Source of the DNA: Psammoneis japonica | Lineage: Eukaryota | DNA: 64,000 nt | Assembly (NCBI GenBank): GCA_008632985.1 | Contig: QPGO01000198.1 | Coordinates: 62,001-126,000, forward strand | Direction of reading: 5' to 3' | Part shown: piece after piece, positions 1 to 52,687 of the stretch | Layout: the number at the start of each line of letters is the position of its first letter | Numbering within the stretch: the first letter of the stretch is position 1 | The notes under the pieces: generated by a model | Told to the model about the DNA's origin: nothing | Database searches by the model: none | What the model saw: only the letters and a program-made list of their open reading frames with translations | Position numbers and translations under genes: made by a program

Positions 1-3000
1 AACAAACAGTTGGGCGCTGGTGCAACCAGAGTCGACGGCCGGGGTGTCGGCATGAACGGTGTCAGTGGCGACAGGCTCGTTGCGGCGGTGCACGTTAAGG
101 GCGGGGTTGGGTGATTTGTAGGCCTTGCGAAGGTGTGTGCCGGCGGGCATGCGGGCGTGCTGCGTGGTGCAGTCAAAAGTGCGACGGACCGCATCGGCAG
201 GTAGGAAGCCAAAGCAAGGCCGAAGAGACTCGAAGGGGGGGTCCTTGGGCTGTACAGTGCGCTCCGGAGGTGGAACGTCATCGCCCTTGGGGTCAATCGC
301 ATGCAGATGACACTCGTAGAACACGTCATCGTTCGGAATGAGGTGATCATCGAGGGCGGACGCGTGATCGGCAGACAAGGAAGCGGACAAGATGGTCTCG
401 TTGACAACGACACGGTGACGGCAGTTGCCGCATTCGTCAAATGGGTTGGCAGTGGGATCGTCCTGCAGGTCAGAGATTGCGTCGTGCCACTGGTCGTCGT
501 CAGTGACAGAGTGATCGAGGACGGAAGGGTCCCATGTGTCATCACCGGTGAGGATGACATGGGGCAGGGTGTCCCATTCGGCGTCAGTGCAAGGTCGCAT
601 GGCAACATAAGGCAGGCCAGCCTTGATGTCAATGGGGATGACATAGCCATCAGGAGTGGCAATGCGTTGCAAGCCGTTGGGCACCTTGACAGAGCGATCG
701 TTGACATCCTGTTTGTGCCATTTGAGCTGGCCACAGGAATGGATGGTCTTGCCCTTTCCCGTGCATGCATGCTGATGGAGGATGGCGATGACGGGACCAC
801 GCTGGGTCTCAATGACGGCACCAGCGGTGACAATGGGGATGTCCACCAATTGATGATCGTCAATGCCCTGAACGTCGACTTGGCGAGAGGTGCGTGCAAT
901 GACGCGAACGTCGTCGCCAGCAATGCCGCCGTTGGCCCCACGATCGACTAGAGCGCCAGTGCGTGTGGAGCGATGAGCAGAGGCAGAGCAAATGACATTG
1001 TGGTTGTTGACGCGGCGGCAAGTGCGGCCGTCAAGTTCCATGTCATCTGCAGAAGCTGGCGGGGTAGAGGAAGCGGCGGATGGCCCCGGTCGACTGGCAT
1101 TGGGGGCTTGGTTAGGGGACAACAGACGTTGCAGATCACCGGGTGGCAGTGGCTTGCGCTTGGTGAGGTGCGCCAGGATGGGATTGTCCGAAGTGGCGTC
1201 CACATGTGTGGCGGAGTCACCACAGTCAGCAGGAGTCGTGTTGGACAAGTTGACATCTCCGTCACTCCCAAGGTGTTGGTCGTGAAGGTTGGCCGTAACA
1301 GACTCATGGCAGTCACTGGCTCGCGGGTTGCGGGGAGGCGGACGACAGTGCTCAAGGATGATCGCCTTGGAGGAATCGGGCAACGAATCCCAGAGCCGTT
1401 GGTGGTCGGGAGGGAGACGTCTCCATTGGACACCGGTGAGGCTGGGACCGCGGGTGTGGGCAGCATTGGCTTGAAGGACGTCAACGTCGCTGTCAATGTC
1501 ACAGAACACATCGTCGGACGGTTCCTCGGAGCAGACGTCATGTGCGCACATGGCGCGTCGGGGAGCTCGAGGTGTCGTCTTGGGTTGAAACGTGCTGTCG
1601 TACTGAGCTGCCGCGGAGAGGAGCAAGCCACAGCATTGATCGTATGTGAGGCTCTTGCCACTCTGCGTACGATGCTGATCAGCTTGGTTCTTGACAGCAC
1701 GGAGTTCCTCGACAGGGTGCACGGCATTCTCGAGCATGACGCGCTTCTGTCCTTCAGAGAAGTGGTCACTGGCGGGGATGAGTGCCTCGCACTTGCGCAA
1801 CTGATCTTGCCAATGAAGGATGAACCCGTGGGTCGGACCTTTCCAAGTGCCATCACCAAGACGTGCGGTGGTGAGGTACGTGAGCAGGGTGGAGGACTCG
1901 ACAGATGCACGGGTGGAGGCAAGCGCGCACTCAGACAAGGAGCGGCAGACGGTCTGTGCGTCAGAAGACCCCACATTTTCGCGAATGAGAGCCTTGCCCT
2001 TGTCGGTGAGAAGGATGCGTTCGAAGACGGCGAACATGCACTTTTGCTGTTCAGCAAAGAGCAGTTTGTCTTCGGGGCTGGTCGGTTTGTACGACGAGTC
2101 TAGAGTGCACTCGACGTCTTGGGCACGGGCTTGTGCCACAAGTGAGGTGTGCCAAGTGTGCCACTGCTTGTCGGATTTGAGAGCCGTGAAAGCGGTGGGA
2201 TCACGCTTGATGCCTCGCTTGAAGTCTCGCACCGGGTCGCGTGCCTTGGTCGGGTTGGCGACATGTGGAGGTGCAAGGGGTGAGCTGCCGATGGACACAG
2301 AGGACATGCAGTCCGGGCTGAGGCGGCAGGCAAGGAACTCGTCATGCGTGAACAAAGAGGAGTCGTTGGACGCGTTCCAGGTCTAGGTGGGACCTCGTGC
2401 TGCTGAACTGTGACATCGACAGTTTTTTGAGTCTCGTCGTATGTCGCGCACGTAGATTTCTACGTGATTTTTTCGATGTTTTGTGTCATTTTACGGCACA
2501 CTTGTTGAGCGATCCGTCCAACAACTTTTGACATTTTTTGTTACAGCGCGATTCTACAATGTCTTAAGAATCGCGTAGGGCAGGCGAAGTTGCAAAAACG
2601 TCGAGTGGTGAGAGGCATAATTGCACCACAAACTTGGCCGTTTATTTGATGTTGAAGATGAGTGTGTCCATTGGTTAAATTCTCGTACTGCGGAGCTCGC
2701 ACGTAGAATTCTACGGGCCCAATGTCACAAGGAGTCCCACCCAGGGCTGGAACGCGTCATTGGCAACGTCAAGACCTTTGTGTGCTTTAACAATGTACAG
2801 GCCAACTAGTGCTGCTAACATGTTCTTGCAACCACGGGGCAAAGGGATTGCACTGGTGCCGTTGTCGCACTCAAGCGAGTCGATTTGGGGCGGTGTGAAC
2901 GTGAACAGTTCCTGATGCGAGTCCGTGCCGTCTTGGGCCAAAGCCAAACGAAGAGGACTCCCAGCACCTTGGGCAAGCACAGTTCCAACAACGTGCTCGA

Positions 3001-3034
3001 AACCATCGGTTTGTTGCTGACGAGTGAGAACCAT
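1..3034 (-). pseudogene. gag-pol polyprotein of the copia element, interrupted by a MITE and carrying Tyr->Cys/His substitutions
   Basis: ATG at 3034 (MVLTRQQQ...). Removing 2369-2758 plus one TSD copy rejoins ...GLDVAN|DSSLFTHDEFL... in frame. The frame appears to stay open to the window edge. Confidence 0.88.
2369..2758. mobile_element. Non-autonomous DNA transposon (MITE) inserted in gag
   Basis: Imperfect TIRs: GACGCGTTCCAGgtCTaGGTGGGAC on the left and, as reverse complement of the right end, GACGCGTTCCAGccCTgGGTGGGAC. 4-bp TSD GTTG (2365-2368) / ATTG (2759-2762). Excision restores the gag frame. Confidence 0.88.
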
Positions 3035-3506
3035 GGCAGACAAAAGTGGTGTCAGGACAATCAATTCTGGTTGGGAAGCGAAGGTAGACTCGAAACTTGG
3101 GTGAGAACAGACTTGACTTGAAACAGACTTGACTTGAAAATCTTGAACTATCTTAAAATCAGAAGTCGCCGGGCTTTGTTGTCCCGTTCGTTGTCAAGTG
3201 CTAAACTTCCTGTCCGGTCCGTAGAGTTGTGCCGGCACGTCCGAACCCGCAGCCAGCGGCGCTTTGGGTTGCTTGCGAGCGGAGCAGCGGGTTGTAAACC
3301 CCTGCAGGTGAGCTGACTGGAGGTGGACAAGACCCCCGAACCGTTCTCATTTTGTGTCGGTTGGATTTCCCGATCAGGCTGGCCAGTTGACGCAGGCATT
3401 GGGCGCTGTGGACGAACGAACAAACGCGGGAAAGCACCCTCGCCCCAACGCAGGCTGCAATCACGGCTGCTTGCTCTCACAGTCGTCCTCGTGGACCTGG
3501 CAGAAC

Positions 3507-4148
3507 TGTAGAGCACCAGCAGTCCGGGGCAGATCAAGTGCAATGGACTCGGTGTGCTTGTAGAGTGGCAGCAAAACCGCAGTCCGAAGAGTGGGCACAG
3601 GTTCTTGGCCGTGAAGACATGCACACATGTGTGTGTCTTCAGCGACTAAGATCCTTGAATGTGTGGGGTTCTTGACCGTCAACCGAGGAACAGGTGTGTC
3701 AAGGGATGTTGATCAAGGATGGACTTGGATGTGACCGTTGAATGCATGTCTTCAGCGATCAAAGGTGGCACAATCAATCCAGATGTCCAGCGGTGAGGAG
3801 ACTTGACGGTGACGTTAACTTCCTGCCGATGCCCTGGTGTTGAATGCGCGTAGACTTGCCGATGTATGTAGAACACACACGGAGGTCCACGTAGAATTGA
3901 AATAGCGTCGTTGGTAAATCAACGACGACGATGGCGGTTGCTCAATGGGTTGACAATGAGCAAGACTGTCAATCTGACAGAAATTGAAGGCAAATGGCAA
4001 GAATTCAAACAATGACTCCTTGCTGCTGTCTAAATGGCAGATGAGTCTCCGCTCAGAGACCGTCACAGGAGCCGAAAGACGTGTAAGTCGGTATAATCGG
4101 GCTACTGTTATTATTCTTGTGAGCCTTGTGGCTCGAAAGCAAACTACA
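3507..4148 (-). repeat. Putative 5' LTR of the copia element
   Basis: Bounded by TGTAG...CTACA inverted termini and located upstream of the gag 5' UTR, which has CAAGTC repeats at 3105-3135. The second LTR is outside the window and no canonical PBS was recognised. Confidence 0.6.
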
Positions 4149-4940
4149 TCGCGCGTGAACGCGCGGAACTAAAGCACACAAAACTGTGCGCGGTAAACTA
4201 AACAGCGCGCGATGCTTCGCGCGCATCCAAATCCTGTTCAAATCCTGTCATCTGCCTTTCGAGAATTTGCAGAGATTTTTGTCATCAATTGTCCTCATTG
4301 ATGCATTTTTTTACATTGTCCATTTCCAATTCGCGAGAACACCTGCACACACAAAATGCGAGTTACAAGGCAAAACAGCAATGAATGAGAGCTTGTGGGC
4401 CCACATGCTTCGAATCGATGCGAGTGTGCACTGTGGACTTGCCACGCTGCTGCCGTTGCAAGAGATGAGATGGCTGAGTGATTGACTTGCTGCACACAGC
4501 TGTGCATGCACTGCCATGCATTCTTCCCACTCTCATTCCAATGCACACCAGTGCAGCATTTGTCAATGGCAGGAAAGTGGCCATGACACTGGGAAAAATC
4601 ACTGTGAACATGCAGGTGCACAGGCACCACCCAGTGCACTGCCCATGTGGTGGGCATGTCATGCATCTCCATCTTCATCTTCAATGCTGTCAAGAAATTG
4701 TGGTCCAAAATGCAATGGCCGAGGCAGGAGTTGCCTGCTTGGCCTTGTGGCCATTCACCACATTGATGCTGTGCCTTGCTTTGGCGGATGTCAGCAAATC
4801 CGTTTGCGAACAAACCCATGAAGAAATTCAAAGACCTTGCCAGCAACAAGCACGCAACAATGGGATTGGCCTCAATCCCCAAATCCAGTGCACACTCATG
4901 TGCATCATTCCATTGAAGAAATCCTGGAATCGACCCACCA

Positions 4941-5470
4941 CAGCACAATCCAAATCACACCCACATGTGGGCACATTGTCAGTCAAGTTGCAGTTGGCTC
5001 CATGCTTGGTCAGATGAATCACAGTCATGGCAAAGAGAATCCACAAGGTCCTGGCCACAAAACAAGCAACAGTCAAACAGCTTCACATGAAGCACATTGC
5101 AATGGACAACATGAAGCATTCATCAACCCATGAATTGGAAATTGTGACTTCCAAAAGAAAGGGAAAAACAACCAACAAGTGCTCAAAGGCAATCACAACA
5201 ATGACAAACCACTTGACCACATGAAAGCCTTGTTTGTGACCCCACACCATCTGCCAGACATGCACGGCAATGGGGGTTGTTGTTTGTGCCAATCCCATCT
5301 GCATCTCCATGACAATCCAGAGCCGATCCACAAAAATCAATGTCAACCAATCTTTGTTCCACCAAACAATGCACTGAATCTGTGGTGATTGTGTGTCAAA
5401 CTTGACCACATCTCCACAATGATCCATGGCTGCTGCAGAACAAACCTCTTTGTTCCACCAAAACAAAGCA
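4941..5470 (+). repeat. Dispersed repeat, copy 1 (copy 2 is split between 7373-7778 and 9584-9745)
   Basis: GCACAATCCAAATCACACCCACATG...GCATCTCCA matches 7373-7775. GAGCCGATCCACAAAAATCAATGTC...AACCTCTTTGTTC matches 9590-9730. Confidence 0.9.
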
Positions 5471-7372
5471 GCAAAGGCAAAAATCACTCTGCAAAATTTC
5501 TGCAGATGTGACAAACAGAAATTGCCGTGCCAATCTTTCGAAAATTGTTGTCGCTTTTCCATTGTTGTCGATCCTTTTCAAGAAGCACAATGTGCTGCAT
5601 CTCAGCACGACATTGCTGCATCTCATTGCAACTTTGCGACTCTCAATCTCAGTGTTGTGGCTCTGCTCTTTGTCAAAATGGGCATGGGTGCAAAGGAGCA
5701 CCCTCGCCATCTTCCCAAAAGTTGAACATGTTTCAACAGAACACGCCAACTTGCTGGAATGGGTTTGCGAATCATGCCCACAACAGGAAGAAGCAATGTT
5801 TAGATGCACATGTTGTCTGTTCAATGAGAGTGAAGAAATGCGAAAGAACGTGCCAACTCGAGTGGGGACACAAATGTGTCCACAGTGCGTGAGGGGACCG
5901 AGCCACAAGAAGGGTCACGATTCCACGTGCCACAGGAATCCGAATGTTTCCAATTGCCATCCACCAGATGAACTGACTGTTTGGGTTCTGAAAGAAGTGA
6001 AGCCCAATTTCCTTCTGGCACTGCCAAATGAGTGCAAAAACAATTTGTTCAGGAGGGGTCTGTTGGAGAATGCATTTCTTGCTGCTCAAGACGGCGGCGG
6101 ACTGCTGGGTTGCTCGGTTCTAGACGGCTTGTGGGAAAGCATCCCCGCTGTGGATCCATTGCATTGCTTGGCTTCCACACCAAATGATGGTTTGCAAACA
6201 CCGCCTTTGCTGGACCCAAATCTCTCACTCGTCAGCCCAACCAATGCGAAGGCGCACGCTTGACCGACAATGTTGGAGTTGCTGATCCGCTGGATTTTGA
6301 ACATTTTGGTCCAGACTTTGAGTCAACAGTGGAAGACATTTTGTGTGAAAAAACTCTGAAGCAAGGAACAACTCTCCACGAACTCCCATCATTGCCCTTC
6401 CACCCAACAACAGCTGCAACATCGATTCCATGCTCGGCTCTCGCGTGTCAACCGGTCTCCATTGGAGCACCAGAATTTGCCCCCCCTGCTTCTCTGACAC
6501 CAATGTCCACTGCTTGTCAACCCAAGAGACAAAAAAACAAGAGAGCAAGAGTGCTGCTGTGAGGGAAGAAAACATCGCGTGGAAAATGGTCTCTGTGGGC
6601 ACGTCGCTCACACGTTGTGGTGCACGAGAGAAAAGCAGGGTTTTCTTGTTTTGCACCAGATCTTGTTGTTCTTGCTGGCATGTGTGTGTTGGCATGAATT
6701 CACCACACTGCCACAGCATGCCATTTGTTTCATAACAAGCCATTTGGAATTGGCAACCAATGGTGCTGCAAATGTGCCACATGCTCTCGTAGCATGCATG
6801 GATTTCACCCATCCGAAACATCAAACACAACAACAACAGCGCCAGCGACGAGCAAGCGAGAGTGACGCAAAAGCAAAAGCAAAGCACGCACACCAAGATC
6901 CCACAATGTGGAGATGTTGAGTGGCCAAATGTTGCTGAGGTGGAATGATCAGAAAGTTGAAGTTTTTGTCAAGTGTTGATGCATCACAATGGGGGATTGC
7001 TGAGTCACAATTCACTCAAGACATGATGTGATTGGCTGAAAATGCAGCGTGCAAGAATGGGACAACCTGGCTCCCAACTGGGAGGTTTGCAGCAGCAGTG
7101 CTCTGTGGAAGAGGGAAAGAGAAGACTTCCCACGACCGGGTCACAACACACCGTGCAATTTTTTGGTTCCTGGCACAAAAACAAGAAATTCCACGCAGAA
7201 TTTGTGTGGCCACCATGGCAAATTTGTGTCGAGTCCACCGTCATTGTCACTGTTCTTCACAAGGTGAGTCACTTGGGATGTTGTCGGCATTTGTCCACTT
7301 TGAGCTTGTGTGAATTATGTTCAAAAAGGATTGTCGATTTGTGCATCACCTGGGGCTGGAACAAGTCTGCCT

Positions 7373-9745
7373 TGGCACAATCCAAATCACACCCACATGC
7401 GGGCACATTGTCAATCAAGTTGCAGTTGGCTCCATGCTTGGTCAGATGAATGATGGTGGCAAAGAGAATCCACAAGGTCCCAGCCACAAAACAAGCAACA
7501 GTCAAACAGTTTTGCATGAAGCACACTGAAATGGACAGATTGTCAAGCTTGACAACACAAAGCATTCAATGATGCTCATCGTGTTGATCGACCCATGAGT
7601 TGGAAATTGTGGCTTCCAAACAAAAGGGAAAAACAACCAACAAGTGCTCAAAGGCAATCACAACAATGGCAAACCACTTGATCACATGAAAGTCTTGTTC
7701 ATGACTCCACACCATCTGACAGACACACGCGGCAATGGGGGTTGTCATTCATGCCAGCCCCACCCGCATCTCCACAATTGGATGCTTTGCTGGACGGCTG
7801 TGTCTTGTCATCTGTGTGAACATGGAGTTGAAATGGAAATTCTTGTGGAGAAGGACACCCACAACATTCTTGGGCTTTGCCACTTGTCTGCACACAAAGA
7901 CTTTGAGCCAATGACACGTCACCAACAATTGGGTTGTTTCGTTGAACTTCAGAGGAAACTGCCAATTTGAGGACAATCCAGTGTGGAGTGAGAGATTTTT
8001 TCTCACTTTTGAACAACAACTTGAGGGCCAGCTCTGCAGATGATTTGAAGGAAATTGACAACAAGAAGTGCGTGATTGCATCTGGGCCTGGTGGTGGCGA
8101 TGCTGGACCAAAGGAAAGCAACCCATGCTGTTGCCACCAATCTTGACAGGAAGGCTGTCAATGGTGGCACTTTCAAGAAGGTGCTGGAGGGAACACAGCC
8201 AAAGCCTCTTGCACATCCATCCACAACCCTCGCCATTCTTGTGGTCCATGCCAGCAACCTCAAGTGGAAAAAACGGAGCATGAGCCATGAGCACACGCAA
8301 GTTTTCCAGATGATCTGTCAAAGAACATTTTGTTTGCAGCTTGTCAAGATGCTCAAGGCATGTGGACCCACTTCTCAAGCTTGCATTGCCACACATGGCC
8401 ACACCCTCTGTGGCACCAATGAGCCTCAGCAAGGAAGTGGACAAAAAAAGGGAGGCCAGCCAGCAGCCAGCTGGCCGCTGTCAGCTTTTTTGATGGAGTT
8501 GGGCAAAAAAGGTGCTTCTTTGGAAGATTTGGAATTGTTGTGAGGATTGACAGTTGTTGGGTGAGGCCAGCCTCCTGTGTTTTGCAAGTTGAGCCCGCTG
8601 TCCAGAGGCATGAGAAAAAGGCAGGGGGGTCTGCCATTTTGCATGGCCCAACAAGGGAGAGAGACATGATGTGTTGTCAAATTTTGTGCCCCTTCTTTGG
8701 GGGCATGTTGACAATCAAACTCCAAAAATCAGCCAGGGCATGCAGACAACCCAGTTCCCAGTTTTGTACAACAATGCAACAACTGCACACAAGCTCTGGG
8801 TGGGACAATTGAGAGCCTGGTTGTCAACAAACTTTGACTGCAGAGAGACAATTGCTGGGTTTGTGTGGTTCTGTCCAGAGTGACAACAAGAAAGGAACTT
8901 TGTCTTTGGGAAGAAGCTTGATGGCAGGAACATGAAGGGCATGTCATTGGCATTGAATGATTTCCTTGGTTGTTTCAGGCTCACAAAAAGAGGGCTTTAA
9001 GAAGGCTCTCAGGCTCCTGCACTGAAAATTGCCATGCAAGGCACATTGCAGCCAAATGTTGAAATCATTGGACACTGATTTTTAAAATGATGTGGCAACA
9101 ATCATGGCTTGCATCATGTGGTTGTCCTTTTTAGGCACAGAAACAAGGGGGGTGAGTTGTTTGCGCCGATTCCTGGTCTGAAAGCAATCGTTCGCCACAA
9201 AGCACAAAATCCAAAAATCCATCTTTTAACCATCTCACAATGGAGAAGAAGTGGCATCTTGTTCAAAGACAAAGGTGAGCAATTGAAAAACAAAAGCAAT
9301 CGGCATTTGAAACATTCATGACTGATGACCTCAAAATGGAAAAAAACAGCCAATCGATTGGCCAGGAGTCAATGGCATCCCAACCCAAAAATGACTCAGG
9401 CAATTCAAAATTTGATGCATTGCACATCAACTCACGCAGTTGTTTTCATGAAGTTCCGAAGCCTTTGAAAGTCATTGGATTCTGTTTCGTGTGCAAAGAC
9501 CACATGCAACAAACCCCAACTTTGTCTTGCCCGTCTGTCTCCGGTCCAGCTGGGGTCAGGGCAGGGGGGGGAGACACAGATGGACAATCAGGAGCCGATC
9601 CACAAAAATCAATGTCGAGCGATCTTTGTTCCACCAAACAGTGCACTGAACCTGTGGTGATTGTGTGTCAAACTTGACTGCATGTCCACAATGATCCATG
9701 GCCACTCTGCAGAATGAACCTCTTTGTTCTGCCAAAACAAAACAG
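7373..9745 (+). repeat. Dispersed repeat, copy 2, interrupted by a ~1.8 kb insertion (about 7779-9583)
   Basis: Homology to 4941-5470 stops at about 7775 and resumes at about 9584. ACAAT is present at both junctions. Confidence 0.75.
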
Positions 9746-10701
9746 CAGCCAGTGTGATTCAAGCTGCGGCCAAGGCAAAAAATTGCTCCTCCCCAGTTGA
9801 TTTGCCCAACAAAACCCAAGAGTGCCAATGTCTTGCTGATGATCAATCGGACACAAGTCAGGACATCAAACAATGACTCTGGGAAGAAATTTCCCAAAGA
9901 GATGGTGAACTGCCGGTCAAGGATGTCAAGAAAGCTCCAGGAGACCGTGAAGCTGTCATGGCTGCAACTGATGCCATGCAGGAGGAGTGGCAACTTGTGG
10001 TCAGTGATGGTGTGGTTTGTCAACTCGAGTGACATGTGCTGTGCACTTCTGCATTTTCAAGGTCTCTGTTGCTGTGGGGTCGCATGACAGTTGGCTGAAG
10101 TGAACATCATGTTGCGCATTGTTCGCAAGGAAGTCCTTTCACCAAACTGGGAGTGTTTGGCACTGCAGTTTGTGCGGCATGACAGTTGGGGATGCCAATG
10201 TCAGCTTCAACGTTGTGGCTGCTGTGCGCTTTGTTCTTCTCTTTGCTGCTCCAAAATTGCAGCAACATGTTGCGGTGGGCCAGAATTGCGTGTTTGTGCA
10301 TTCCAGCAAAAAATCCTGGCCACCTCCTAAAACCTCAATCGACCCCTTTCTAGAGCTTTTTGCTTCCTCCCTGACCCACAGCAATGGCAAACTGTGCTTC
10401 ATCTTCACCATCCTCAACTGTGATCCTTCTCTTTCTGCATTCCCCGCTGACGTCATCGTCATCAGGCACATTTCTGTCTGTTCCCTGCACAGTGCGTTTG
10501 ATGTTTTCCTGTCAACAGATGCCATGGTGGAAGTTGGGCAAGCTGCATGATCAGCCTTGACTGCCATGTCAGGAGAGTCATTGTGAGTGTCACAACGACT
10601 GGCCATGTTGGTGCTGGGCTGCTGCTTGGAGAAAGGTTTTGTGTCATGTGCCTGGCACAATTGACAACACGTCTTGCTTGACACCCGCGAAATCAACTCC
10701 T

Positions 10702-13058
10702 TCACCGGTTGGCACAGGGCTCATGTGCCAGCTTTCTCTTTCTGCTGACATTCACAGCAAATGTGCCAACAGTGACGATGACAATCAGCAACAAAGTTTT
10801 GTTTTTGGCTTTGAAAGCCTCGCCTCCTGTCACTTTCAAGAAGGCAGGCTCCTTGTTGTTCTCCCAGCAGACAACACTCACACCATCTTTGTTGTGAGGA
10901 GGCCCAAAGCACTCTTCACTGATCTTTGCCACAGACTGCCTCAACAGATGTTTTCTTTAAGAAAGGACACAAACACCATGCTGCATTTGACCCTGTGATT
11001 GATGCGCTTGAAGACATCCTTCAGAAGTGAGGCATCAACACCACTCCTGCAGTTCTTGCACTCAACAACCAAGAATGGACTGTTGGTGGTTGTGGGGCTG
11101 TGTTTGTTGCACATCCTGCTGTTGACCATTTTGTTGTCTGCATGCCGGTCAAGGAAGCCAATGGACACGTTGGGCAGGTCGGCAAGCTCTGTTGGAAGGC
11201 CAGAATTTGAGCCACCGAGCGCAGGCACGTCAGGCCAAATGAACTTGAGCTCATTGAAGAATGAAGGAGCAGTGGGTGCTTTCTCAAAGAATTCTTCCAA
11301 TGGGAAGGCGCGAACCAAAGGCAGGAACTCCTTCAGTGACATGCCACCCAAACAAAGGGAATCATTTTTTTGTAGACCTTCATCAATGCCAAGGTCAAGG
11401 CCACATGAGCTGGAGCCTCCAGCAAGTTCCCATCACTCTTGGTTGCATGCTCGATTTCTGTGAATGGCTTGCTGTTGAAGAGATCTTGGCATCTCATGCA
11501 TGCTCCCCTCACGGTCAACGGTTTGCACGGCTTCTTGAGTCCATCGATCAGTGGGAAAAGGGGTTTGGCGTTTTCTTCCAGCATTGCCTTGGTCCATGTC
11601 ACCAGAGCCAGGCAAAGCAACGGCTCCGTCCTTGCACAAACGGGTGCTGCCTCGAGCTGCTTCCCACAGTTTGAAGCCTTGACACACTTGTGGCTTGCTC
11701 TCCCATCATCACCGCCCTGCACAAGCCAGCCAAAATGATGACCAACAAGCTTGTGAGCAGAAGCAAACCAATCTCCTTTGATTTCGACGTCCATTTCAAA
11801 CAGTTGCGCCAGTTGCAAATCTGAGCTTTCCGTCCAAGCATGGCTCTTGCACTGCTGCAACGCACATCAGATGACACCCACACATTCCAGCAGGCTGCCA
11901 TCTCCCTTGATGATTTTTGCCTTGGCCTTTGCCAGAGTCCAGGGTCGCTCCGCATCCCTCCAAAACAATGGTGGTCTGTCCAGCCCTGGAAATGGTGAGC
12001 ATTTTGGAAGCGCAGACATGATCCAAGTCCACACATCAATTGACTTCCGGGATGCTGCTCCAATGCAGTCTTGTGCTCCTGTGTGGGTGCTCATCAAGAT
12101 TGGAGCAATTCCAAGGCATTGAAGGGTGTCCCTCAAACAAAGAGCACACTTGAAGCGGCCATTGTTGCCCATGGGTGGGACTTCGTTGAGAAAAACCAGG
12201 AACTTCTTGCCTTGTGTGGCAGCTTTGAGATCTCTGAGCTTCAACACACTTCACGTCATCCCATCGAAAAGGCTTCCCAGTGAGCAGGTGATGGAGCAAG
12301 CGGACACAGGCAGAATGGCCCTTGTCCTGCTTTTTGGCCCATTGGGTGATCCCGTTTGCTGATGGGGTCATTGCTTTGCGGCCAATCATTTCAATGAACT
12401 TGGCAATTGTTTCCATCAATGGCTTCGAATCGTGAGGATGGCAGAAGCTTTGATCGCTGTCCTGGCCCATGTTCAAGCAGATTGTTTTCGCCCCTTCGAA
12501 GGTGAGACTTTCAGTCGCCGCCAACTGAGTTTTCCCAGTTCCTGACGAGGCAATGATGCAGATGCAGCAGTTCGGCCATTCAACATCAACTTCCTCTTGC
12601 ATTTCTGGAAACTCAGCTTCAATTTCCGCTTCCTCTGGTGCAACCTCTTGTTGGCCCAAGAGAAAATTAAGAAGATCTTGGGTGCCTTCAGATCCACCGC
12701 TCTCAATTGCCCCTTGAATGCAGTCATCCAGGCCATGCCATTTCAGTGGCGACTGGGGAAGGAGGGCATTGCAGCAGCAGCCAGATTTTTCTAGCCCATC
12801 GAGCAACTCAAAGTTGTTCAATTCAGCCTCAACACCCAGTGCCAATGCAAAACAATCCTCCTTCATGGCCTTGCTCAATGTTCGGTGCAAATGATCTTCC
12901 TCTTCCATCAGTCTTTCCAAAGCCATCAGAGGCACCGCCCTTGGTGCCTCTTTCACGGCAAGGATTGTTTCTTCGTTGTTGAACTGGAGAGATGACCCCA
13001 CCCAAGACACCATGGCACTGCGACGCTGCCGCCGCTGCCGCTGCTCTTTGTCACTCAT
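10702..13058 (-). pseudogene. Crinkler-like P-loop NTPase + restriction-endonuclease-fold pseudogene
   Basis: Walker A IIASSGTGKT, Walker B-like FLVFLNEVP, ILMSTHTGA and C-terminal FLVVECKN. Several frameshifts, and Tyr is essentially absent. Confidence 0.65.
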
Positions 13059-14586
13059 GAATGCAACCGAGGAATGAAATCTGAAGCAGCAAGACTTTGT
13101 TTGTTGTTGCCTTTTGTCTTGGTGGCATGGAGGTTGTGGCAATGTGAAAGCAAACAAATGAAGGCAGGTTTGGCAACAAACGATTTCCAGATTTCAGTCA
13201 ATCAAATGGGGGCCTGCAGTGCCGCAGAACCTGGCATGACTTTGCACACATGCTTCACCGTGTTTTTGGATGAGGAGCACAAAAGATGCAGCCATGGCAG
13301 CCAAGCTTTGTTTGGGCGTGTCAAAGCAAGTTATGTTGTCTGTTGCATTGTCATTCGTTGCTCACTGGATTTTGTGCAGTTCAAGTTGGAGGGAATGGGA
13401 AGAGACACAACACTGCTTTCCACAACAAGAAGAGTCCTTGTCAATCCAAGCTGGAGCACAGAGTGGCGCACGCAGCTGCTTCTCTGACAAATGACAGACA
13501 AGCACATTGATGATGAAACCAGTTGTTGTTGTTGTGCTTGTTTGTGCTCAGCATGTGTTTTGGACACATCAACAACAGCACCCACAAAATGCAGCACAGC
13601 AACTGGTCATCAGCTCAAAGTTTTGTGCTCTTGTTGTTCTGCCAAAAGAGCCTCTTCCACCCAGACATCTCCATTGCTGCCCGCACGACTTCCATGTCAA
13701 GGCACCCTGATTGCCATGCAGTCTGGGGTGGTCCATGTTCTTTGCAGGGCATGCATGAGCTTGTGCAAATGAGCAAGAGAGAAAGGGGTTCTCAGATGAC
13801 AGCTGGCGGCAACAGATGCTGGTCTCCCACAAAAGGGTGCAAATGAGATCATCAGCGGAAGCTCACCTTGTTTTCTTTCATCCAATGAGCACAAGAAGCA
13901 ATGGGTGAAGCTGTTGCAATCACTGATGGTGCAGGAGACAAAAATGCAGCCACAGGAGCCACCCAAACCTCCAAATCAGCATCCTCCATGGCAGCATCAA
14001 TGGAGCTGAAGGCAAGTGCAGAGATGTGCTTGCCAGCCATCATCCATGTCCATCATGCCCACACCACAAACAACCGTGATTTCACACTGAAAAGCATGAA
14101 AAAGCAGCATGACAAGTGAGGGCCAGCTGGGGGATCATGGGGCACATGAAAAATGATGCTCCAAAGCAACAAAACAGTGGCACAGCATTGTGCACTTGCT
14201 CGCTCACATGGTGTTCTCCACCAGATTCTGTCATGCAGATGTCAAAAACAACAACAACGATTCTGCTGGTGTTGTTTGTTCATGCATGTTGCAATGCAAG
14301 AAATGCCAACATGACAGCCAGTGAGTTGTGAAGTGGCAACAAGATGGCAACAACACAACAAACTGATCCAAGCCACCATGACACACCTTGCCATGTCAAT
14401 GATCACTCTGCATGGTGTTGGGGCACTGTTGATCGCAATGACTCCAAACAGCAACTTGCCACATTGGCTGTCTTTTTGTTGGTGAATGCGCTGCACTGCA
14501 CACAAAAAATGCGTGCACGTTGCTGTGGCAAACAAAGAGTCAAGCAATTTGGCAATGTTGTTCATTTCACTCAGACATTTTGGTTG

Positions 14587-14712
14587 TGATTTCTTTCATG
14601 ATTTCTGGTGATTTCTTGCATTTTCTCTTGATTTCTTGTGCTTCTTGCAATTTCTCATGCTTCTTGGAATTTCTTGTGCAATTTCTCTGGATTTCTTGTA
14701 ATTTCTCATGCT
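14587..14712 (-). repeat. Degenerate tandem repeat (ATTTCTY-rich; coiled-coil-like EKLQE on the minus strand)
   Basis: Repeated gatttcttg / caatttctc units about 10-11 bp apart. Confidence 0.6.
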
Positions 14713-14994
14713 GATGTCTTTGTGACACATTGTCATCAACGTTGTTGAAGGATGAGAACACATGCCATGATGCTTTCTCCAGATGATGTGCTTTGAAAAA
14801 GGAATTTCACATGAGAGGCAATTTTGCAAACACATCTCCTCCTCCCCACTTCGACAAGCACATTCTTTAAAATTTGCCTGGGCACATTCTTCAGACATCA
14901 AAGAACATGCCCAGCCTGTTGTCATTGTCACAAATGAAGAAAACAGAAGGCCTTTGGCTTTGCAAAACAGGGAGCATGAAACACCAATTTTGCA

Positions 14995-15101
14995 GAAGAT
15001 CACACGTAGAAACTGTGCGCGCGACATGCGGCGTGATCCAAAAAACTGTCAACGTTGCAGCTCAGCAGTGCAAGGGGTCCCACCCAGAGCTGGAGCTTGT
15101 C
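14995..15101 (-). mobile_element. Degenerate terminus of the same transposon family as the MITE at 2369-2758
   Basis: Aligns with the reverse complement of 2369-2475 (CACGTAGAAA..GCGCGACAT.CG...CAAAAAACTGTC...CAGCAG...GGTCCCACC.AGA.CTGGA). Confidence 0.8.
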
Positions 15102-15270
15102 AACAGCCAGAAATTCTGCCATGTCTGTCTCTTCTCTTTGCACATCTGCAGGAGATGGCAGTCATTTTGGATGGAATGTTCTGTGGCAATGTGGGAGATG
15201 CTGGAGGTGACAACGCCATGGCGGAGGCAGGTTGCACAGGAATTTTGAACAAAAACACCACACTTTCAAA

Positions 15271-15491
15271 CAGTGTTGACCAATTGCCAGGATGGGTTGC
15301 AATCAGCCTCGCTTTGATTGCAATCACTGTTGCAAACTCAACTGCAATCACCTGATTGTTGGGAACGAGCTGAGGTTGCAATCACAATTGACTGCTGCAA
15401 TCAATTGCAATCAAAATTCAAGCTCCATTTCCAGCCAAAAGACTGATTGCAATCTGATTGCTGCAGAAAACTTTGCAATCAGTCAACACTG
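15271..15491. mobile_element. MITE with CAGTGTTGAC terminal inverted repeats and internal GATTGC/GCAATC repeats
   Basis: CAGTGTTGACcaATTGC ... GCAATcaGTCAACACTG, with CAAA on both flanks as a putative 4-bp TSD. Confidence 0.8.
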
Positions 15492-16899
15492 CAAAGGGCC
15501 AGTGTGGCACAACCAGAGGTCACTGGAACACAAACAAAGTGTGAAAATGCATGTTTTCAAGCAGGGAGAACTTGTTTGCATGGTCGTTCAAGGCTGGCAA
15601 GGTGCTTTTGCAGATGACAACATTGACAGATTTTTTTTTGTGGTGTCAAAATTAATTTCAACACCACACATGGTGTTGGCTTCTGATTGGCTTTAAAAAT
15701 TGACAGCAAACACATGCAATTGAGTGCAACATCTTCAACTGCCAATTTTGTTTGTGCCTTCATTGGCGATCATCTGTGAAGTCAATGCATGTCACATGCG
15801 ACATCATTTGACAATGTTTGGTGATGATTGTCATTGCATGCAGAGTGTTGAACTTTCTCTGTGCGGGATGTCCCAGAGGGCATGGGAACAAATGAGAACA
15901 AATCTCTTGCATGCAACCTTGGCGCACCATCCATCTTGCATCTGCGACAGTCTGTGAGGAAACTTTGGGTGTGCAAAGCACACACCACAACCATTGACAC
16001 ATGGACTTGCAACAGAGAGTGATGCATGGCAAGGGGCAAGTTCTCCCACACATGGGTCAGAAGTTCTTGCAATGAAAACTGCAGTTGAGCAGATTGAGGC
16101 CTTGCATTGCAAGCTTTGAGGCGCAAGCAGCAGGGATTGTGCAGATGGCTTGGGAGGATGAACACAAAAATCTGGCAGATGCACTCACCAAACTCATGCC
16201 CAGGCCAAAGCCCTGGGAATTGATTCATCACATGCTGTGGTGAGTTGGTTCATCCAAAATGGATGAGCTGGGATTTTCCTCTAAAAACAGAGGGGTTTTG
16301 CCCACCCCAAACAAAGTTGGAATTCTCTAGAACAGGGCGGCAATGTGGGGGTGCAGGTTGTGTCAAACTGACCCAACTGTGATTGGTGTCAGCTCAAGAA
16401 GACTGAGTGATTCCAGCCATGCTGCAGCCAAATGAGCACTGGGACCATTTGGCAAAGACTGCCGCTGTCGTGTGAATGGTGGGTGGCACAGAGCAGCCAC
16501 TTCAGTGTGTGATCCCTTGGAGCAACCCTCACAATTTCCAGAATCCTGTTGACTGCTGTGCAACACTTTTCTGCCATGTCTTGTCAATTTTTGGCAACTG
16601 GTGTGGCACAATTTGCTCAGTTGAGAAAACCAGGCTCACAGTTTGTCCCCCCCAGGAGCATGTGGTGCACAGTCATTGTGTTGTTGCGCACAAAACTGGG
16701 AGCTGGGTCATCTGCATCTTTTGATTGATTTTTGGTGGAGTTCTCTTGTGAATGAAACCCAACACAGCAACAGGAAAGTTGACAACAACACATGTCTCTC
16801 TCCTTGGGAGCCTTGTGATGTGAGACAAGCCTTTCCTCATGATGAGATGCCTCAAGACAGCGGACTCAACTTGTGAAATGTGCAGGCACTGACTTCACC

Positions 16900-17090
16900 C
16901 AACAATGGCCATCAGTCCTGCCCTCATCAACTCCAAATCATCCAAAGAAATGTCTTCCAACAGCTCTGGTCCCTCAAAAAAGCCAGCAGTGCCACTGGTC
17001 TCTTTCATCTTCACATCCTTGTGTTGGCTCATCATCAGAGAGGGTGACAACCATGGGAAAGCTTGAGAAGTGGGCCCACACGCCTGTTGA
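16900..17090 (-). repeat. Diverged inverted copy of about 8355-8560
   Basis: The reverse complement contains TGTGGGCCCACTTCTCAAGCTT...CACCCTCT...ATGAGCC...CAAGGA and TTTGGA.GATTTGGA.TTG, as at 8360-8540. Confidence 0.7.
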
Positions 17091-17857
17091 CTCATCCCCA
17101 GCTTGCTTGATGTGAGCATCTGGGCAGGCTGCAATCAAAATGTCATTGGACATCTCATCTTGAAAATCCACATGCTTGCACCTGGTGTTCCACTTTTTTC
17201 ATTTGGGGTTGCTTTTGCTTTTGGAGCAGGGGACAGCCAAGGCCAGCGGGTGGCGGCTGTGGGGGTTGGGATGAGAGGTGGCAAGAGATTTTGAGTGTGT
17301 TCCTTCTGGCACCTTCTTGAAAATGCCATTGCTTTCTGGTGTCACCAGGCCCAGACACAACCGCGTGCTTGTTGATTTCCTTCTCACACATCATTTGCAA
17401 GAGTGTGTCATCTGCAAGAGTTGTTCAAAAGCACGGTGCTGAAAGAATTTCCCTCCACACTGGATCATCTTTAAATCAGTGGTTTCCTCTCTGAATTTGA
17501 TGAAACAGTTTAGCCATTCTTGATGCCATTGTTCAAAGTCGTTGCGGACAAAGAGCAGATGCTCTTTTGGATCGGTGGCATCGAATGTTACATCTTAAAA
17601 ACATGTCTGTTGTGGAATTGACACGGTTGCACTGCTGCGGCGGGCGGTCGCAAAACCCACCCGAGAGTTTCTGCGCACGACGAGCACGACTCGCACGACT
17701 GACAAATTTTGGCAGCAGACGCAGAACAGCCGCGCCGCATGCACTCGAAACTCGAAAGTCTGATTTTTTCATGAGTTTTGTGCATTGTAGGGCCTCAAGT
17801 TATTGTTGGTGGTTGCAGTGTGCTTGTTGCGTTTGCCGAGTCTCTCCCACAATTGCA

Positions 17858-18791
17858 ATGAGAATTTTGGAGAGCTTGCAAGCGGTGTTGGCCGAAACGA
17901 ACCCGAGTGAGGTCATTCACATCACCATCTTGGGTGAAGAACTCGATGCTGAAGGTGTCCAGCAATTGTGCCGAGTCCTTCCGTCCTTTTGCGAATTAAC
18001 GCATCTTATTTTGTGTGCTTGTAACCTTGGTTCAGAGGGAATGGACGATTTGTCTCTAGCCCTTTTGTTGCTCCCAAAGCTGCATTTCCTTGATGTGAGC
18101 CACACGCGATTGGGGATGACGGTGTCAAGTGTTTGTCGAAAGTCATCCCTTCTCTCTTTCAGCTGGCGACACTTAACCTGAATGATGAAACAGCATTGGC
18201 CCTGAGGGTGTAAAGTCTTTGTGCGAAGTGCTGGAAGAGAATGCAGCAATCACGTATGTCATCCTCGAAAGAAACGCAATAAGCTGTCGAGGTGCAGAAT
18301 ACATTGGGAAAAATGTTGCTAAAAAATCGCAAACTGACAACTTTGTCGTTACGGATTGTCGCATTGGGCAAAAGGGAACTAAAGTGTTGGCCAAGAATCT
18401 GCATGGAAACTCATCCATTGATGCTCTTTATCTTGATGGCAACAACATTAGAGATGGTGGTGCAAGAGCCCTCGGACAAATGCTTGCACAAAACGACACA
18501 ATAAAAAGTTGATTGTGTCGCGGGACTCTTTTGGAGATGCGGGGAGGCGGCCCTGGTGGACGGCGTGAAGCAAAATAGGAAGGTTAATCCTTCCCGTTTA
18601 TGGCCGGCATTGGCAAGGAGCTGGTTTCTGAGATTGAAAGAGACCGCAAGATGTTAAGGGACATTTTGCGGTTGTTGCGTCGTGATTCGGTTCCCGATGG
18701 TATTTGGGCCAAGGTGTTGGCACGGGTTAGCCACAACCCCAACCTTCTTTACCGTGTAATCAAGGCCAAACCAGAGATATTCAGGAAATGA
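17858..18791 (+). CDS. RNI-like leucine-rich repeat protein (NLRC3-like), with frameshifts
   Basis: LxxLxLxxCxLG and LYLDGNNIRDGGARAL repeats spread over three frames. C-terminal GIWAKVLARV motif, also seen in the LRR gene at 30.5 kb. Confidence 0.75.
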
Positions 18792-21140: not shown

Positions 21141-21244
21141 GGATGTCTCGCTCCAATCCCAAACACCAACATCTCCTCACATAATGTAGCACCAGTCCTG
21201 TTTCTCCAATCTGCAAGCAGAGGAGGAGCCGACAGGAATCACAA

Positions 21245-34168: not shown

Positions 34169-35009
34169 GTTTTCAACAACAACTTGCAATCAATCAACCA
34201 ATTTCGAGAAATTGTGCCACCACCGTTGACAAAAAAAGCCAATGCGCCCAATAGGCGAGCTCACAACGTGGCAGACGCGGTGTTCATCCTGCACGCACCC
34301 GTAGATTCAGTACGGAGCTTTTCGTTGAAGGAATGTCCTTGTAGCTTGCTGTATTGATTCTACACAACGTCTATGACTCCACCATGATCAACTGCGACTT
34401 TGAGACATTGTGTTATGTATGCAGTTGTCAACGACAATGACCATGACCCGCATATCTTGATAACGAAAAGTCATTGGGTTCAAATAATGACACAAATTTT
34501 ACACAAAGCTTTTATGTACTGTAAATCCCTTTCGACATTATTTATGAGCAGTCTTGTCCCAGAGCACGACACATAGGCCCTAAACTTCATTTTTTCTTAA
34601 TTTCGGATTCAGTACTTATGTAACACCACCACACGAACAAAGTCAGAGAGTTGCCACGATGACCATGACCAGCATTTTCGAATCAGCCAAACGATCACAG
34701 TAGAAATCTAGAGATTGGTAGTATAAACATCAAAAGTCATTGGATTCAAAAACACATTTATTTTGGACAAAGCATTTATGCCTCAGAATGAAAGTCATTA
34801 CGATTGACAAGCTTCCCATTTATGCCGGTAAAGAGGAATGTGTGCCAGAACTGTCATCATAAACCTCAAACCTCCTGCTTCCGCGCGGTAAAGAGGAATG
34901 TTGTACTCTAGCTAGGAACTGTTAGGACCCCATTTCTGCACATCATTCAGGGTTAGTCTTGTCGACTTTTAGCAGGACAAATCGTAGAAGGAATCTGTAG
35001 AACAGACAA

Positions 35010-38000: not shown

Positions 38001-38390
38001 CACAGGATTTTGGAGCAAAGAATGGGCAGTTGTGCAACAGGCAGGATGTTGTGGGGGAGGCCATTTTGGGCTCATCACAGACTTGCACCAATGGCAACCC
38101 TCCATCTCCCAGGATGCTCAATCCAATGGAGGGGATGTTGCCATTTGTTGCCACTGGGAGGCCAACATGCATGACCCAACCTTGGACAAATGAGTGGAGC
38201 CAGAACTCTGTCTGTTTTTCATTTTGCCACACAAGCAATGGGCAGCTGTCTGTGGCCTCTCAACTGAGAGCAAGTGTGAGATGATGGGCTCAACCTCACA
38301 GCAGACCTGCTCCAACACATTGGGCTTGAGGTCAGCACACACAAGAGATGGAGCTGAGAGCTGACAGCACCAAGCACAAAGTGGCCCACG
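35010..38390. other. TpA/CpG-depleted degenerate block, containing an N at 35655 followed by a ~240 bp TA-rich island
   Basis: TA is nearly absent except at 35656-35900, and ORFs are Cys/His-rich. Confidence 0.9.
35833..35899. repeat. 32-bp inverted repeat (hairpin, 3-nt loop)
   Basis: TGTTGGACAACCAGATGCCGATgCTACTgACA-agg-TGTtAGTAGtATCGGCATCTGGTTGTCCAACA, with two mismatches. Confidence 0.95.
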
Positions 38391-48995: not shown

Positions 48996-49563
48996 TGCCA
49001 TGTATTGTAGTTTTGTCGACTAATGACTCTCTACTCTAGCTAGAATAGAGTTGAACTTGTATGTCGGAGGAACAACTGGAACACTCATTGCACATTATTA
49101 TCTTCCCTGCAACTCTACCGTACACATTATTCAGGAAGCCCATGCTACTCTACTTAAAAAACAAAAAGGAGATACCAAAGCAGCAACACGCAATAAACCC
49201 TAAAGACGAATTGTGTCGTACGAATGAACGACATGCAGCCGCATGTCCAACACGTATGATTGGAGTAAGATGTCGACCCATCTCCTTGCTTTATTGCGCC
49301 ACACGAGAAGAGAGCGAGTCTTGCTCTTTAGCAGTCGAAGAGAAGCTGGAAGTTGTCTATGGGTTGTGGTTCTCCTACATAATTTAAAGTTTTCCTATTC
49401 TAACCTAGTCGTAGCATCCATCTTGCATGTAATATCCTGACCAAGGGCTACTACGTACCCGTGTTACAATGCTAAACGATGCAATCACCACAAGAGATTA
49501 CAAAAACAAGTCTTTCTTTGAATTGTTTGATACATTCAGTAAGCAAAGCTTGAATAGCACCTG

Positions 49564-50748: not shown

Positions 50749-50981
50749 GTTGATGAGTTTCTGGACAATCACTTTTAGTAGATCGATCAATCATGCCAGT
50801 TAGTTCTCTACACTAAGAGGGGAGAGGGTGAATTTGCAGCTTTCGGCTTTCGTTTGCAGAGATGCGATTTTGTGAGAGTCTTGCAGAGTCAGGGCGCATG
50901 CTAAGTAAAAGTTAACGGTCATGACTGAGAGTTCCAGTCTTGGCTTTCGCGACTGAAAGGAGCAACAGCTCAAATTTGCGT

Positions 50982-51741
50982 CCCCATTTGCTCAAACTTG
51001 GCAAGTTTGAGCAAAATGCTCAAACTTCCGAGATTGCTCAAACTTGCGCAAGATTGAGCAATTGGTCAAAAACATGTGCCAGCTTGGTGCAACAGAGCCC
51101 TGTGTGAAAAAAATCCACCATGTTGGCACACGGCCGAGGACGTTGCATCATTGCGCTCTGATGACATGAAGACAGTGTCGGCACACTGACAATCCATTTG
51201 CCACATGTTTTTGACTTGGAACAACAAACCTCAATGTTGTGGCACATGTCAATTCCTCAGCACACTTTGAAAAATGTTTTCGATCGAAACAAGAGGCAAA
51301 AATGTTGTGCAACACTTTCTCTTCTTCTTGTTGCACCCCACCCCCCATCAAGCCTGTTCTGCCAGAACTTTCAACATTTTCATGCACAAGTTTGTGCCAC
51401 ATGTTTTTCATTGGATTGCTGGGTTTCTTGAAGGTGTTGTCACAGAGAAACTGCGCTCTTTGTTGGCCGCCAATGGCTGCAAACACCACTTTGTTTCTGA
51501 TGCTTTTGTTTTTTGCACTGACACCCCTGCATGCACCAGTTGACAAAAGCAGCAATTGCAGTGTGCACTGCAAGCACTGTGCAGTGGGGGCCAGCTCTGT
51601 GCAGCTGTTTTGTGCAGGCAGCCTCCACTTTGCACTTGCAGCACATGTTTGAGCAACAATTGCTCAACAAATTTGAGCAGTTGTCCAAACACATTCAGCC
51701 CATTTCTTGCTCAAACACATCATGTGTTTGAGCAAACGGTG
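50982..51741. mobile_element. Putative non-autonomous DNA transposon with TGCTCAAA/TTTGAGCA subterminal repeats, within a TpA-depleted block (about 50940-52300)
   Basis: CcCCaTTTGCTCAAAC on the left and GTTTGAGCAAAcGGtG on the right. Motif clusters at 50987-51062 and 51646-51736. No clear TSD. Confidence 0.6.
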
Positions 51742-52470: not shown

Positions 52471-52687
52471 TGGGGGAAGGTCTCCCAGCCAGCTGCTGGC
52501 TGAAGAATTTTGTGTAGAAATTGAACTGAAAGAGTCTGTCAATCTGTGCGTTAGGGGGTTTTGGTGAACGCTGGACAGACTCGTCTTCTTTTGCGTACGT
52601 AAAAATTGTACTTGCAACTTGCAAAACCCCCAAACGCACTGACGATCAGACTTTTTTCAGCCAGCAGCTGGCTGGAGTCTTCCCCCA
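52471..52687. mobile_element. MITE with ~30 bp TIRs and 4-bp TSD
   Basis: TGGGGGAAG..TCC(C)AGCCAGCTGCTGGCTGAA ... TTCAGCCAGCAGCTGGCTGGAGTCTTCCCCCA, with ATTC on both flanks (52467-52470, 52688-52691). Confidence 0.88.

Follow-up and report, generated by a model that had tools for sequence, protein, structure and literature searches.

Why do long blocks of a diatom contig contain almost no TpA dinucleotides while the DNA beside them contains a normal number? We address this question for a stretch of 64,000 bp, hereafter the window, from Psammoneis japonica (contig QPGO01000198.1, positions 62,001 to 126,000). A first-pass annotation of the sequence had listed the few TpAs that survive in one such block and had proposed an enzyme-like preference for the target 5'-TAY-3', or 5'-RTA-3' on the other strand (Y, pyrimidine; R, purine). 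Segmentation with a two-state hidden Markov model (HMM) of TA versus TG/CA steps showed that TpA loss was blockwise rather than uniform, with eight sharp-edged converted tracts that cover 27,876 of the 64,000 bp (43.6%; Table 1). Conversion is limited to these sharply bounded tracts. As detailed below, the tracts are mutated DNA rather than DNA of a native composition, and the change at TpA is a pure transition.

Dinucleotide counts identified the products of the change. From normal to converted DNA, TA fell from 38.6 to 2.0 per kb and CG from 55.3 to 16.8 per kb, with TG+CA rising from 149.3 to 222.4 per kb, and in the fully converted tracts the observed/expected ratio (o/e) of TA was 0.01–0.05. 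The joint loss of TA and CG (75.1 per kb) was close to the gain of TG and CA (73.1 per kb), which leaves little room for transversions. The four YR steps (TA, CG, TG and CA) summed to 241.1 per kb in converted and 243.1 per kb in normal DNA, with base composition unchanged, and a simulation that altered TA and CG alone reproduced the densities of TA, CG, TG/CA and AA/TT. The conserved YR sum and the match of AA/TT to the simulation make a process of the DNA polymerase eta type unlikely, and the parallel that the first-pass annotation had drawn to the errors of that polymerase is a poor fit. The two products, TG and CA, were intermixed along the DNA (runs tests in four tracts, z from -1.5 to +0.6), indicating that each site and each strand was hit independently.

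Other copies of the converted DNA retain some of the original dinucleotides. We compared the window with contigs from three sequencing runs of a single sample; among the runs listed as containing this DNA, none was of RNA. At an identity of at least 85%, 3,271 contigs of run X1 aligned to positions 4000–23999, so the main tract (4203–17990) is repetitive. Differences between the window and the other contigs numbered 1,051, with transitions (A>G 194, T>C 182, C>T 154, G>A 166) far above any transversion (27–48 each). Among 40 differences listed of these 1,051, a TG or CA of the window stood as TA in 8 and as CG in 8 of the other copies. The TA-free sequence itself was also present outside the assembly, as Logan contigs of 625–1,632 bp carried it, and the long contigs differed from the window by 0.3–1.9%.

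Protein-coding remnants within the tracts record the same change in their tyrosine codons. The Copia-type frame that fills the first tract (P0002) had 104 relatives, a Phaeodactylum tricornutum protein among them. At 20 columns where these relatives conserve tyrosine, P0002 had 10 cysteines, 3 histidines, 5 tyrosines and 2 phenylalanines. Tyrosine to cysteine was the commonest mismatch at 345 conserved columns (10 of 64), and tyrosine to cysteine or histidine made up 13 of the 64. Both strands had been changed, as the altered tyrosine codons read TGY in 10 cases and CAY in 3. Among the 105 members of the Copia family this pattern was found only in P0002 and P0007, the others having 0–1 cysteines at these columns. 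P0007, a Copia-type protein of 959 aa that comes from a different public source, has 11 cysteines, 3 histidines and 3 tyrosines at the same 20 columns. The main tract holds a remnant of a P-loop protein gene (P0001), and opposite the tyrosines of its sole homologue stood 6 cysteines, 2 histidines, 1 phenylalanine and 1 proline; no paralogue of this remnant was found elsewhere in the window. Conversion of TA to TG or CA creates no in-frame stop and removes TAA and TAG, with the consequence that long open frames arise in all six phases. The converted DNA would be disabled by missense change, chiefly the loss of tyrosine.

The signature was also found in environmental sequence. Of 80 related metagenome Copia loci, one (L030) was as TA-free as the window tracts, with 3 TpAs in 2,447 bp and 6 cysteines, 4 histidines and no tyrosine at the tyrosine columns. 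The process is therefore not peculiar to this assembly. A second locus, L003, had a Copia frame (1106–3514) with 9.1 TpA per kb, against 30–45 in its relatives, and a TA o/e of 0.27. Its sense-strand survivors comprised 15 YTAY, 3 RTAY, 4 YTAR and no RTAR (p = 0.005 versus relatives). As a converted copy it was rejected, as 14 conserved tyrosines were kept and RCA was not enriched; it may represent an early stage of this process, or one confined to a single strand, or merely an unusual composition.

The TpAs that survive conversion define the sequence preference. All 22 positions in the first-pass list, which spans 6120–17513, are correct, each coordinate marking the start of a tetramer whose TA lies one base on. 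The list had overlooked three others, ATAA at 6733, GTAG at 6790 and TTAT at 7316, none of them YTAR; the statement that survivors are mostly YTAR holds, with 17 such sites out of 25 rather than 22. A further YTAR survivor, TTAG at 5801, lies just upstream. For counting we used four tracts, A to D (4365–17471, 35970–38391, 46168–49002 and 50914–52514; 19,965 bp in total), with 34,593 bp of normal DNA from the same window as the reference. YTAR made up 31 of the 39 survivors in these tracts, compared with 200 of 1,333 TpAs in normal DNA (Fisher p = 3.1e-18), and all 15 survivors in tracts B, C and D were YTAR. The YTAR share in 56 unconverted metagenome Copia frames was 15.5%. The survivors in the NTAN count were thus out of proportion to background tetramer frequencies.

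The preference was graded rather than absolute. Relative to normal DNA, survivor density was 0.27 for YTAR, 0.017 for YTAY/RTAR and 0.004 for RTAY. Within YTAR, TTAA was by far the best protected (17 survivors, ratio 0.65), with CTAG and CTAA/TTAG at 0.15–0.16. We then assigned each TpA to a class by two bases, the one that follows the A on the strand read and the one that follows the A on the complementary strand. Survival by this pair of bases was 0.655 for A/A (that is, TTAA), 0.16 for A/G, 0.15 for G/G, 0.009–0.025 for one pyrimidine with one purine, and 0–0.014 for two pyrimidines. An additive per-strand model described these values; the sensitivity, expressed as -ln(survival), was 3.69 with T, 3.05 with C, 1.15 with G and 0.31 with A as the base 3' of the A, and the model improved on uniform survival by a likelihood-ratio chi-squared of 94.4 (3 df). 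Sites with a 3' T were the first to vanish in the less complete tracts (60865–63996 and 1–2400). It is the base following the A that determines the rate of conversion, in the order T ~ C >> G > A, and these data support TAY as a good summary of the preference. Four independent lines support the target proposed in the first-pass annotation: the survivor contexts and, as described below, the product classes, the simulation and the tyrosine codons.

Two tetramer classes were over-represented among the remaining survivors. CTAC/GTAG accounted for 8 of 15 non-YTAR survivors in tracts A to D and 60858–64000, against 204 of 1,133 non-YTAR sites in normal DNA. Among surviving TpAs of the target type, CGTA/TACG made up 7 of 13 in 1–2400 (p = 0.001) and 11 of 34 in 2401–4364 (p = 0.011); the reference in normal DNA was 161 of 1,134, a figure that understates the true background because 1–4364 is itself CpG-rich. 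From the CpG-touching survivors one might guess that a methylated C is rejected as the 3' neighbor.

A flank rule alone leaves two base pairs of the TpA step as candidates for the change, and the products distinguish between them. YTGY+RCAR rose by 26.5 per kb and YCAY+RTGR by 12.5 per kb, with ~10.8 per kb of each expected from CpG decay. We simulated the alternatives by subjecting normal DNA of the window to the fitted flank rule and to CpG decay at 70% without bias. The observed densities of the two product classes were 71.0 and 48.5 per kb. A model in which the A next to the deciding neighbor changes gave 72.3 and 50.1, compared with 58.4 and 63.9 if the opposite base pair changes and 65.3 and 57.1 if the choice is random. 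Tyrosine codons preceded by a pyrimidine pointed the same way, with TGY:CAY ratios of 6:1 in the Copia frame, 6:1 in the P-loop remnant and 2:2 in L030, or 14:4 in total. The minority route (4 of 18, 22%) fits the ~8–25% predicted to arise through the slower T-A-R target on the other strand. The changed base is the A beside the deciding neighbor, TAY>TGY, which is RTA>RCA on the other strand.

CpG was lost from the same tracts in a different manner. The CG o/e was 0.15–0.5 in tracts A to D, and the CpG survivors followed no Y/R flank rule (ratios 0.29, 0.39 and 0.26). In the Copia tract, ~82% of the expected TpA was gone (TA o/e ~0.18), CG o/e was still 0.96 and the 794-codon frame was unbroken. 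The missing flank rule, together with the lag of CpG loss in the Copia tract and in 60865–63996, indicates a separate process, and the TpA loss of the Copia tract with its CpG intact indicates that TpA conversion is faster than CpG decay. Many related metagenome Copia loci have lost CpG (o/e 0.03–0.25) and retained TA at an o/e of 0.44–0.6; TpA conversion is therefore not general to diatom transposons. The simplest reading of the CpG loss is decay of methylated CpG. Like such decay in diatom transposons, the window and the metagenome Copia loci show loss of CpG to TpG and CpA, and in the window this occurs in the same tracts. Unlike the change at TpA, it explains 38.5 of the 73.1 per kb gained by TG/CA, only half, and is absent from the Copia tract.

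We consider it probable, though well short of certain, that these tracts are silent DNA derived from repeats and transposons that underwent region-limited, near-saturated hypermutation at TpA by a DNA adenine deaminase acting as a defense. In this process TpA becomes TpG or CpA, by A:T>G:C transitions that affect both strands of the genomic DNA. The agent appears to be an enzyme with a three-base recognition sequence, T-A-Y, centered on the edited base, as would be expected of an enzyme that flips out and modifies a single base. Its targets would be silenced, repetitive or foreign DNA, in the service of genome defense or as a by-product of one, and genes would be inactivated through missense change of tyrosine to cysteine or histidine, in-frame stops being impossible. 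The likeliest chemistry is deamination of adenine in DNA to inosine, which is read as G, as has been proposed for the chlorarachniophyte alga Bigelowiella natans (Mettrop et al., bioRxiv 10.64898/2026.01.13.699255).

Our literature search returned no report of a TpA-erasing signature in diatoms and one 2026 preprint, on an unrelated alga, the other papers retrieved being on fungal repeat-induced point mutation, ADAR and APOBEC. According to the parts of that preprint drawn on here (bioRxiv 10.64898/2026.01.13.699255), mutation-accumulation lines of B. natans acquired 231 de novo mutations in two integrated viral regions, of which 230 were A>G/T>C; these GC-biased mutations are stated to fall all on TpA, at ~6e-7 per site per generation. 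ADAT2 homologues are proposed there as candidates, with reference to the DNA-editing ADAT2 of amphioxus and trypanosomes, and TpA-poor coding sequences are described as enriched in reverse-transcriptase and DDE domains. The main text in these parts mentions neither flanks nor CpG ('flank', 'trinucleotide' and 'CpG' occur 0 times). Like the giant-virus and virophage integrations described there, the window shows A>G/T>C change at TpA only, on either strand, giving TpG and CpA, restricted to particular silent or foreign regions (silence being presumed here), with long-term clusters that are poor in TpA and rich in CpA+TpG. It differs in the extent of loss, as the nucleocytoplasmic large DNA virus region of that chlorarachniophyte retains a TpA rho of 0.45, a partial depletion, compared with an o/e of 0.01–0.05 here. 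Mutation was followed there in real time, whereas the window is known from its sequence alone, and the enzyme is postulated in both. The window is a second and saturated instance, in a diatom-like genome, of TpA-restricted hypermutation of the B. natans type.

Several observations weigh against a DNA adenine deaminase, or against the evidence assembled for it. Of the open reading frames (ORFs) scanned in the window, none carried a deaminase or TET/JBP domain. Deamination of A in T-A-Y and modification of T in R-T-A give an identical change in double-stranded DNA. A TadA-like preference for UACG was not apparent, the sensitivity of TAT (3.69) being at least that of TAC (3.05), and TACG/CGTA was over-represented among the survivors of the Copia tract, at the 7 of 13 given above. 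The pyrimidine-preceded tyrosine codons of L030 divided evenly between TGY and CAY. The simulation, which takes the ancestral tracts to have resembled the window's gene-rich DNA in composition, left residuals of up to 12 per kb at non-YR steps (GC +12, CC/GG +8, AC/GT -9, GA/TC -9). The single sample behind the sequencing comparison is possibly the assembly's own source. As for what triggers conversion, which could be repetition, silencing or foreignness, the normal stretch at 18–24 kb also lies under several contigs.

The most serious alternative, which we nevertheless hold unlikely, is an attack on thymine. A TET/JBP-type oxygenase or another modifier could act on the T of 5'-R-T-A-3', and the oxidized base (for example 5-formyluracil derived from 5-hydroxymethyluracil) would mispair with G and give T>C. 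The outcome, RTA>RCA, is the same, and all sequence results fit it equally. Several protist lineages have thymine-modifying enzymes, and 5-formyluracil is capable of mispairing with G. By contrast, 5-hydroxymethyluracil pairs with A and is weakly mutagenic, such that near-complete conversion would need further oxidation. No domain of this kind was found among the scanned ORFs of the 64 kb, and the only published parallel that we found argues for adenine deamination, itself by inference.

A slower version of events, also improbable in our view, would make the tracts old and the mutations a by-product: TpA in heterochromatin would carry a heritable, mildly mutagenic mark, like 5-methylcytosine at CpG. 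TpA is self-complementary and could carry a maintainable mark, and the losses of TpA and CpG coincide in four tracts. In the Copia tract, however, TpA loss has far outrun CpG decay, most of the TpA being gone with CpG at an o/e of 0.96 and the 794 codons free of stops and frameshifts. Many of the metagenome Copia loci are depleted of CpG and yet retain much of their TA. The real-time rate described for B. natans, in the portion of the preprint used here, is ~1,000 times background.

Editing outside the chromosome, with RNA edited in the manner of ADAR or single-stranded cDNA edited and the edited copy then integrated, is very unlikely. It would suit the Copia retrotransposon that forms one tract, and the sense-strand survivors of L003 (15 YTAY, no RTAR) show the bias that editing of one strand would leave. 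Like the editing of retroelements by ADAR or APOBEC3, the window shows clusters of transitions in retroelement copies; unlike it, which is strand-specific and acts on RNA or single-stranded cDNA, both strands and non-retroelement sequence are affected here. The changes of the two strands are intermixed in the window, the Copia tyrosine codons include both TGY and CAY, and the converted DNA extends to a gene remnant that is not a retroelement and to 13 kb without a Pfam match. It is this involvement of both strands, of the gene remnant and of DNA without recognizable coding sequence that makes editing of RNA or cDNA unlikely. One tract edge also falls within an open frame, and L003 is ambiguous, its RCA not being enriched. 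The T-A-Y context differs from the motifs of ADAR and APOBEC, and ADAR tolerates A, U or C 5' of the edited A and favors a 3' G.

An artifact of base calling or assembly at heavily modified TpA and CpG sites is more improbable still. The runs that bear the sequence all come from one sample, possibly the assembly's own data, and their long contigs are not identical to the window. The Logan contigs nevertheless reproduce the TA-free sequence over 625 bp and more, the exchange of tyrosine for cysteine and histidine recurs in P0007 and in the metagenome locus L030, and neither the sparing of TTAA nor an additive rule per strand is expected of errors. Least credible of all is that the tracts are foreign or specialized DNA that never had TpA, or that selection removed it, for instance as a protection from TA-targeting transposons or nucleases (TA-poor DNA would presumably evade TA-specific insertion), given that conserved tyrosines of two protein families are now cysteine or histidine, that other copies in the same sample retain TA and CG at converted sites, and that the tracts have no recognizable function and a conserved sum of YR steps.

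The process invites comparison with two further systems. Like repeat-induced point mutation (RIP) of fungi, in the parts of its literature used here, it is a region-limited and near-saturating set of transitions in repeated DNA with a dinucleotide preference, which degrades transposons past recognition and leaves short unconverted islands in converted DNA. Unlike RIP, whose C>T changes fall mainly on CpA and generate TpA and stop codons, the window shows the reverse, a loss of nearly all TpA from its tracts. RIP is triggered by duplication; the main tract is repetitive, yet normal DNA of the window also lies under several contigs. A diverged duplicate in normal DNA (40837–41494 and 43367–44017, 79% identity over 684 bp) has remained free of TA conversion, an observation relevant to whether duplication suffices as a trigger. 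The converted tracts are not copies of one another, as a self-comparison of the window gave nine similarities, of which the tracts share only a few short ones. The second comparison is with TadA, ADAT2-ADAT3 and the base editors derived from them, in which the edited A is preceded by U or T; correspondingly, only TpA was lost here. Bacterial TadA targets U-A-C-G, and natural TadA and ADAT enzymes act on RNA loops.

Table 1. Converted tracts, unconverted islands and protein frames of the window. Counts give surviving TpA over the sum of TA, TG and CA steps.
Feature	Positions	Strand	TpA/steps	CG o/e	Remarks
Converted Copia tract	3..2378	-	17/431	0.96	
P0002, Copia-type (CoDi-like) gag-pol frame	3..2378	-			open for 794 codons, runs off window start
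Unconverted island	2384..2816		19/88		mostly within 25-nt inverted repeats 2369-2393 / 2734-2758
Partly converted stretch	2819..3810		9/182	0.81	upstream of Copia frame
Unconverted island	3816..4199		18/76		overlaps short element at ~4037-4250
Main converted tract	4203..17990		32/3,069	0.35	includes the range of the first-pass annotation
P0001, P-loop protein gene remnant	12036..13193	-			385-codon open frame without a Tyr codon
Converted tract	35003..35664		0/151		ends at single N (35655)
Unconverted island	35667..35877		21/52		beside N at 35655; runs into 32-nt hairpin 35833-35899
Converted tract	35883..38387		8/589	0.15	7/7 survivors from 36251 on YTAR
Converted tract	46175..49001		6/610	0.16	6/6 survivors YTAR
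Converted tract	50920..52513		2/364	0.50	2/2 survivors YTAR
Converted tract	60865..63996		15/595	0.74	milder CpG loss; survivors 8/15 YTAR, 5 CTAC/GTAG

G+C was ~48% across the whole window, whose genes are long, nearly intron-free frames for ordinary eukaryotic proteins, among them an acetyl-CoA synthetase, an NDUFAF7-type methyltransferase, a Costars-domain protein, an Arf GTPase, a DDI1-like aspartyl protease, a UvrD-like helicase, leucine-rich repeat (LRR) proteins, and proteins resembling sulfotransferases and fucosyltransferases. The named relatives of the NDUFAF7-type frame were all diatoms, led by Fragilaria crotonensis (47%) and Seminavis robusta (42%) and followed in order by Nitzschia, Cylindrotheca, Amphora and Cyclotella; its best unnamed matches reached 52%. 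Among 25 stop-to-stop frames of the main tract, Pfam gave no match below E = 0.001 and five weak ones (E 0.0028–0.083), and among 106 frames of the other converted tracts, the Copia frame included, it gave none. Rfam and tRNA scans of the 64 kb returned no matches, nor did Rfam over 2300–4400 at E up to 1. In normal DNA at 26277–29286 (+), three consecutive frames share the UvrD-like helicase between them, and weak matches to a STAND NTPase and a PARP-type zinc finger follow downstream; the gene may contain introns or be disrupted, and it could act in DNA repair or defense.

The three unconverted islands have features of note. At the 5' end of the Copia frame, ~390 bp (2369–2758) between 25-nt inverted repeats (88% complementary) have a normal TpA content amid converted DNA. 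The segment contains an inner inverted pair (2448–2466 / 2700–2718) and looks like a miniature inverted-repeat transposable element; the insertion is either younger than the conversion or too short to be targeted. The short CpG-rich element at 4037–4250 lies in a depth bin (4000–4666) with a summed depth of ~149,000 in run X1 and is covered on both strands by 55–81 nt contigs of the tiny run X3, and either a small element of very high copy number or a gene for an abundant small RNA might account for this. Between 35655 and 35899, a single N is followed by a 212-bp island with normal TpA and CpG, flanked on both sides by TA-free DNA and ending in a near-perfect 32-nt hairpin (arms 35833–35864 / 35868–35899); a recent insertion or a join in the assembly may explain it. 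One tract edge falls inside an open frame. The 484-codon open frame P0228 (60136–61587, -), which has no Pfam match, straddles the left edge of the tract 60865–63996, such that its first ~243 codons lie in converted DNA and lack tyrosine and the remainder is normal in tyrosine. Conversion is therefore not halted by frame boundaries.

The converted tracts have practical consequences for genomics: transposons within them escape annotation, open frames are inflated in all six phases, and analyses of diatom genomes and metagenomes that rely on dinucleotides are biased. The quantitative rule T-A-Y > T-A-G > T-A-A, together with the identity of the edited base, offers a direct means of searching for the enzyme and of testing candidates. 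If a DNA adenine deaminase is indeed responsible, then A-to-G editing of double-stranded DNA would occur in nature, and genome defense would gain a new arm. As a more tentative extension, on the doubtful side of even, diatoms and perhaps much of the stramenopile–alveolate–rhizarian (SAR) supergroup may possess a chromatin-targeted editor of 5'-T-A-Y-3' in double-stranded DNA, an adenine counterpart of RIP that destroys tyrosine codons where RIP generates stops. Such an editor would rewrite transposons, pseudogenes and integrated viruses to completion, and the CpG-adjacent survivors hint that cytosine methylation may block it.

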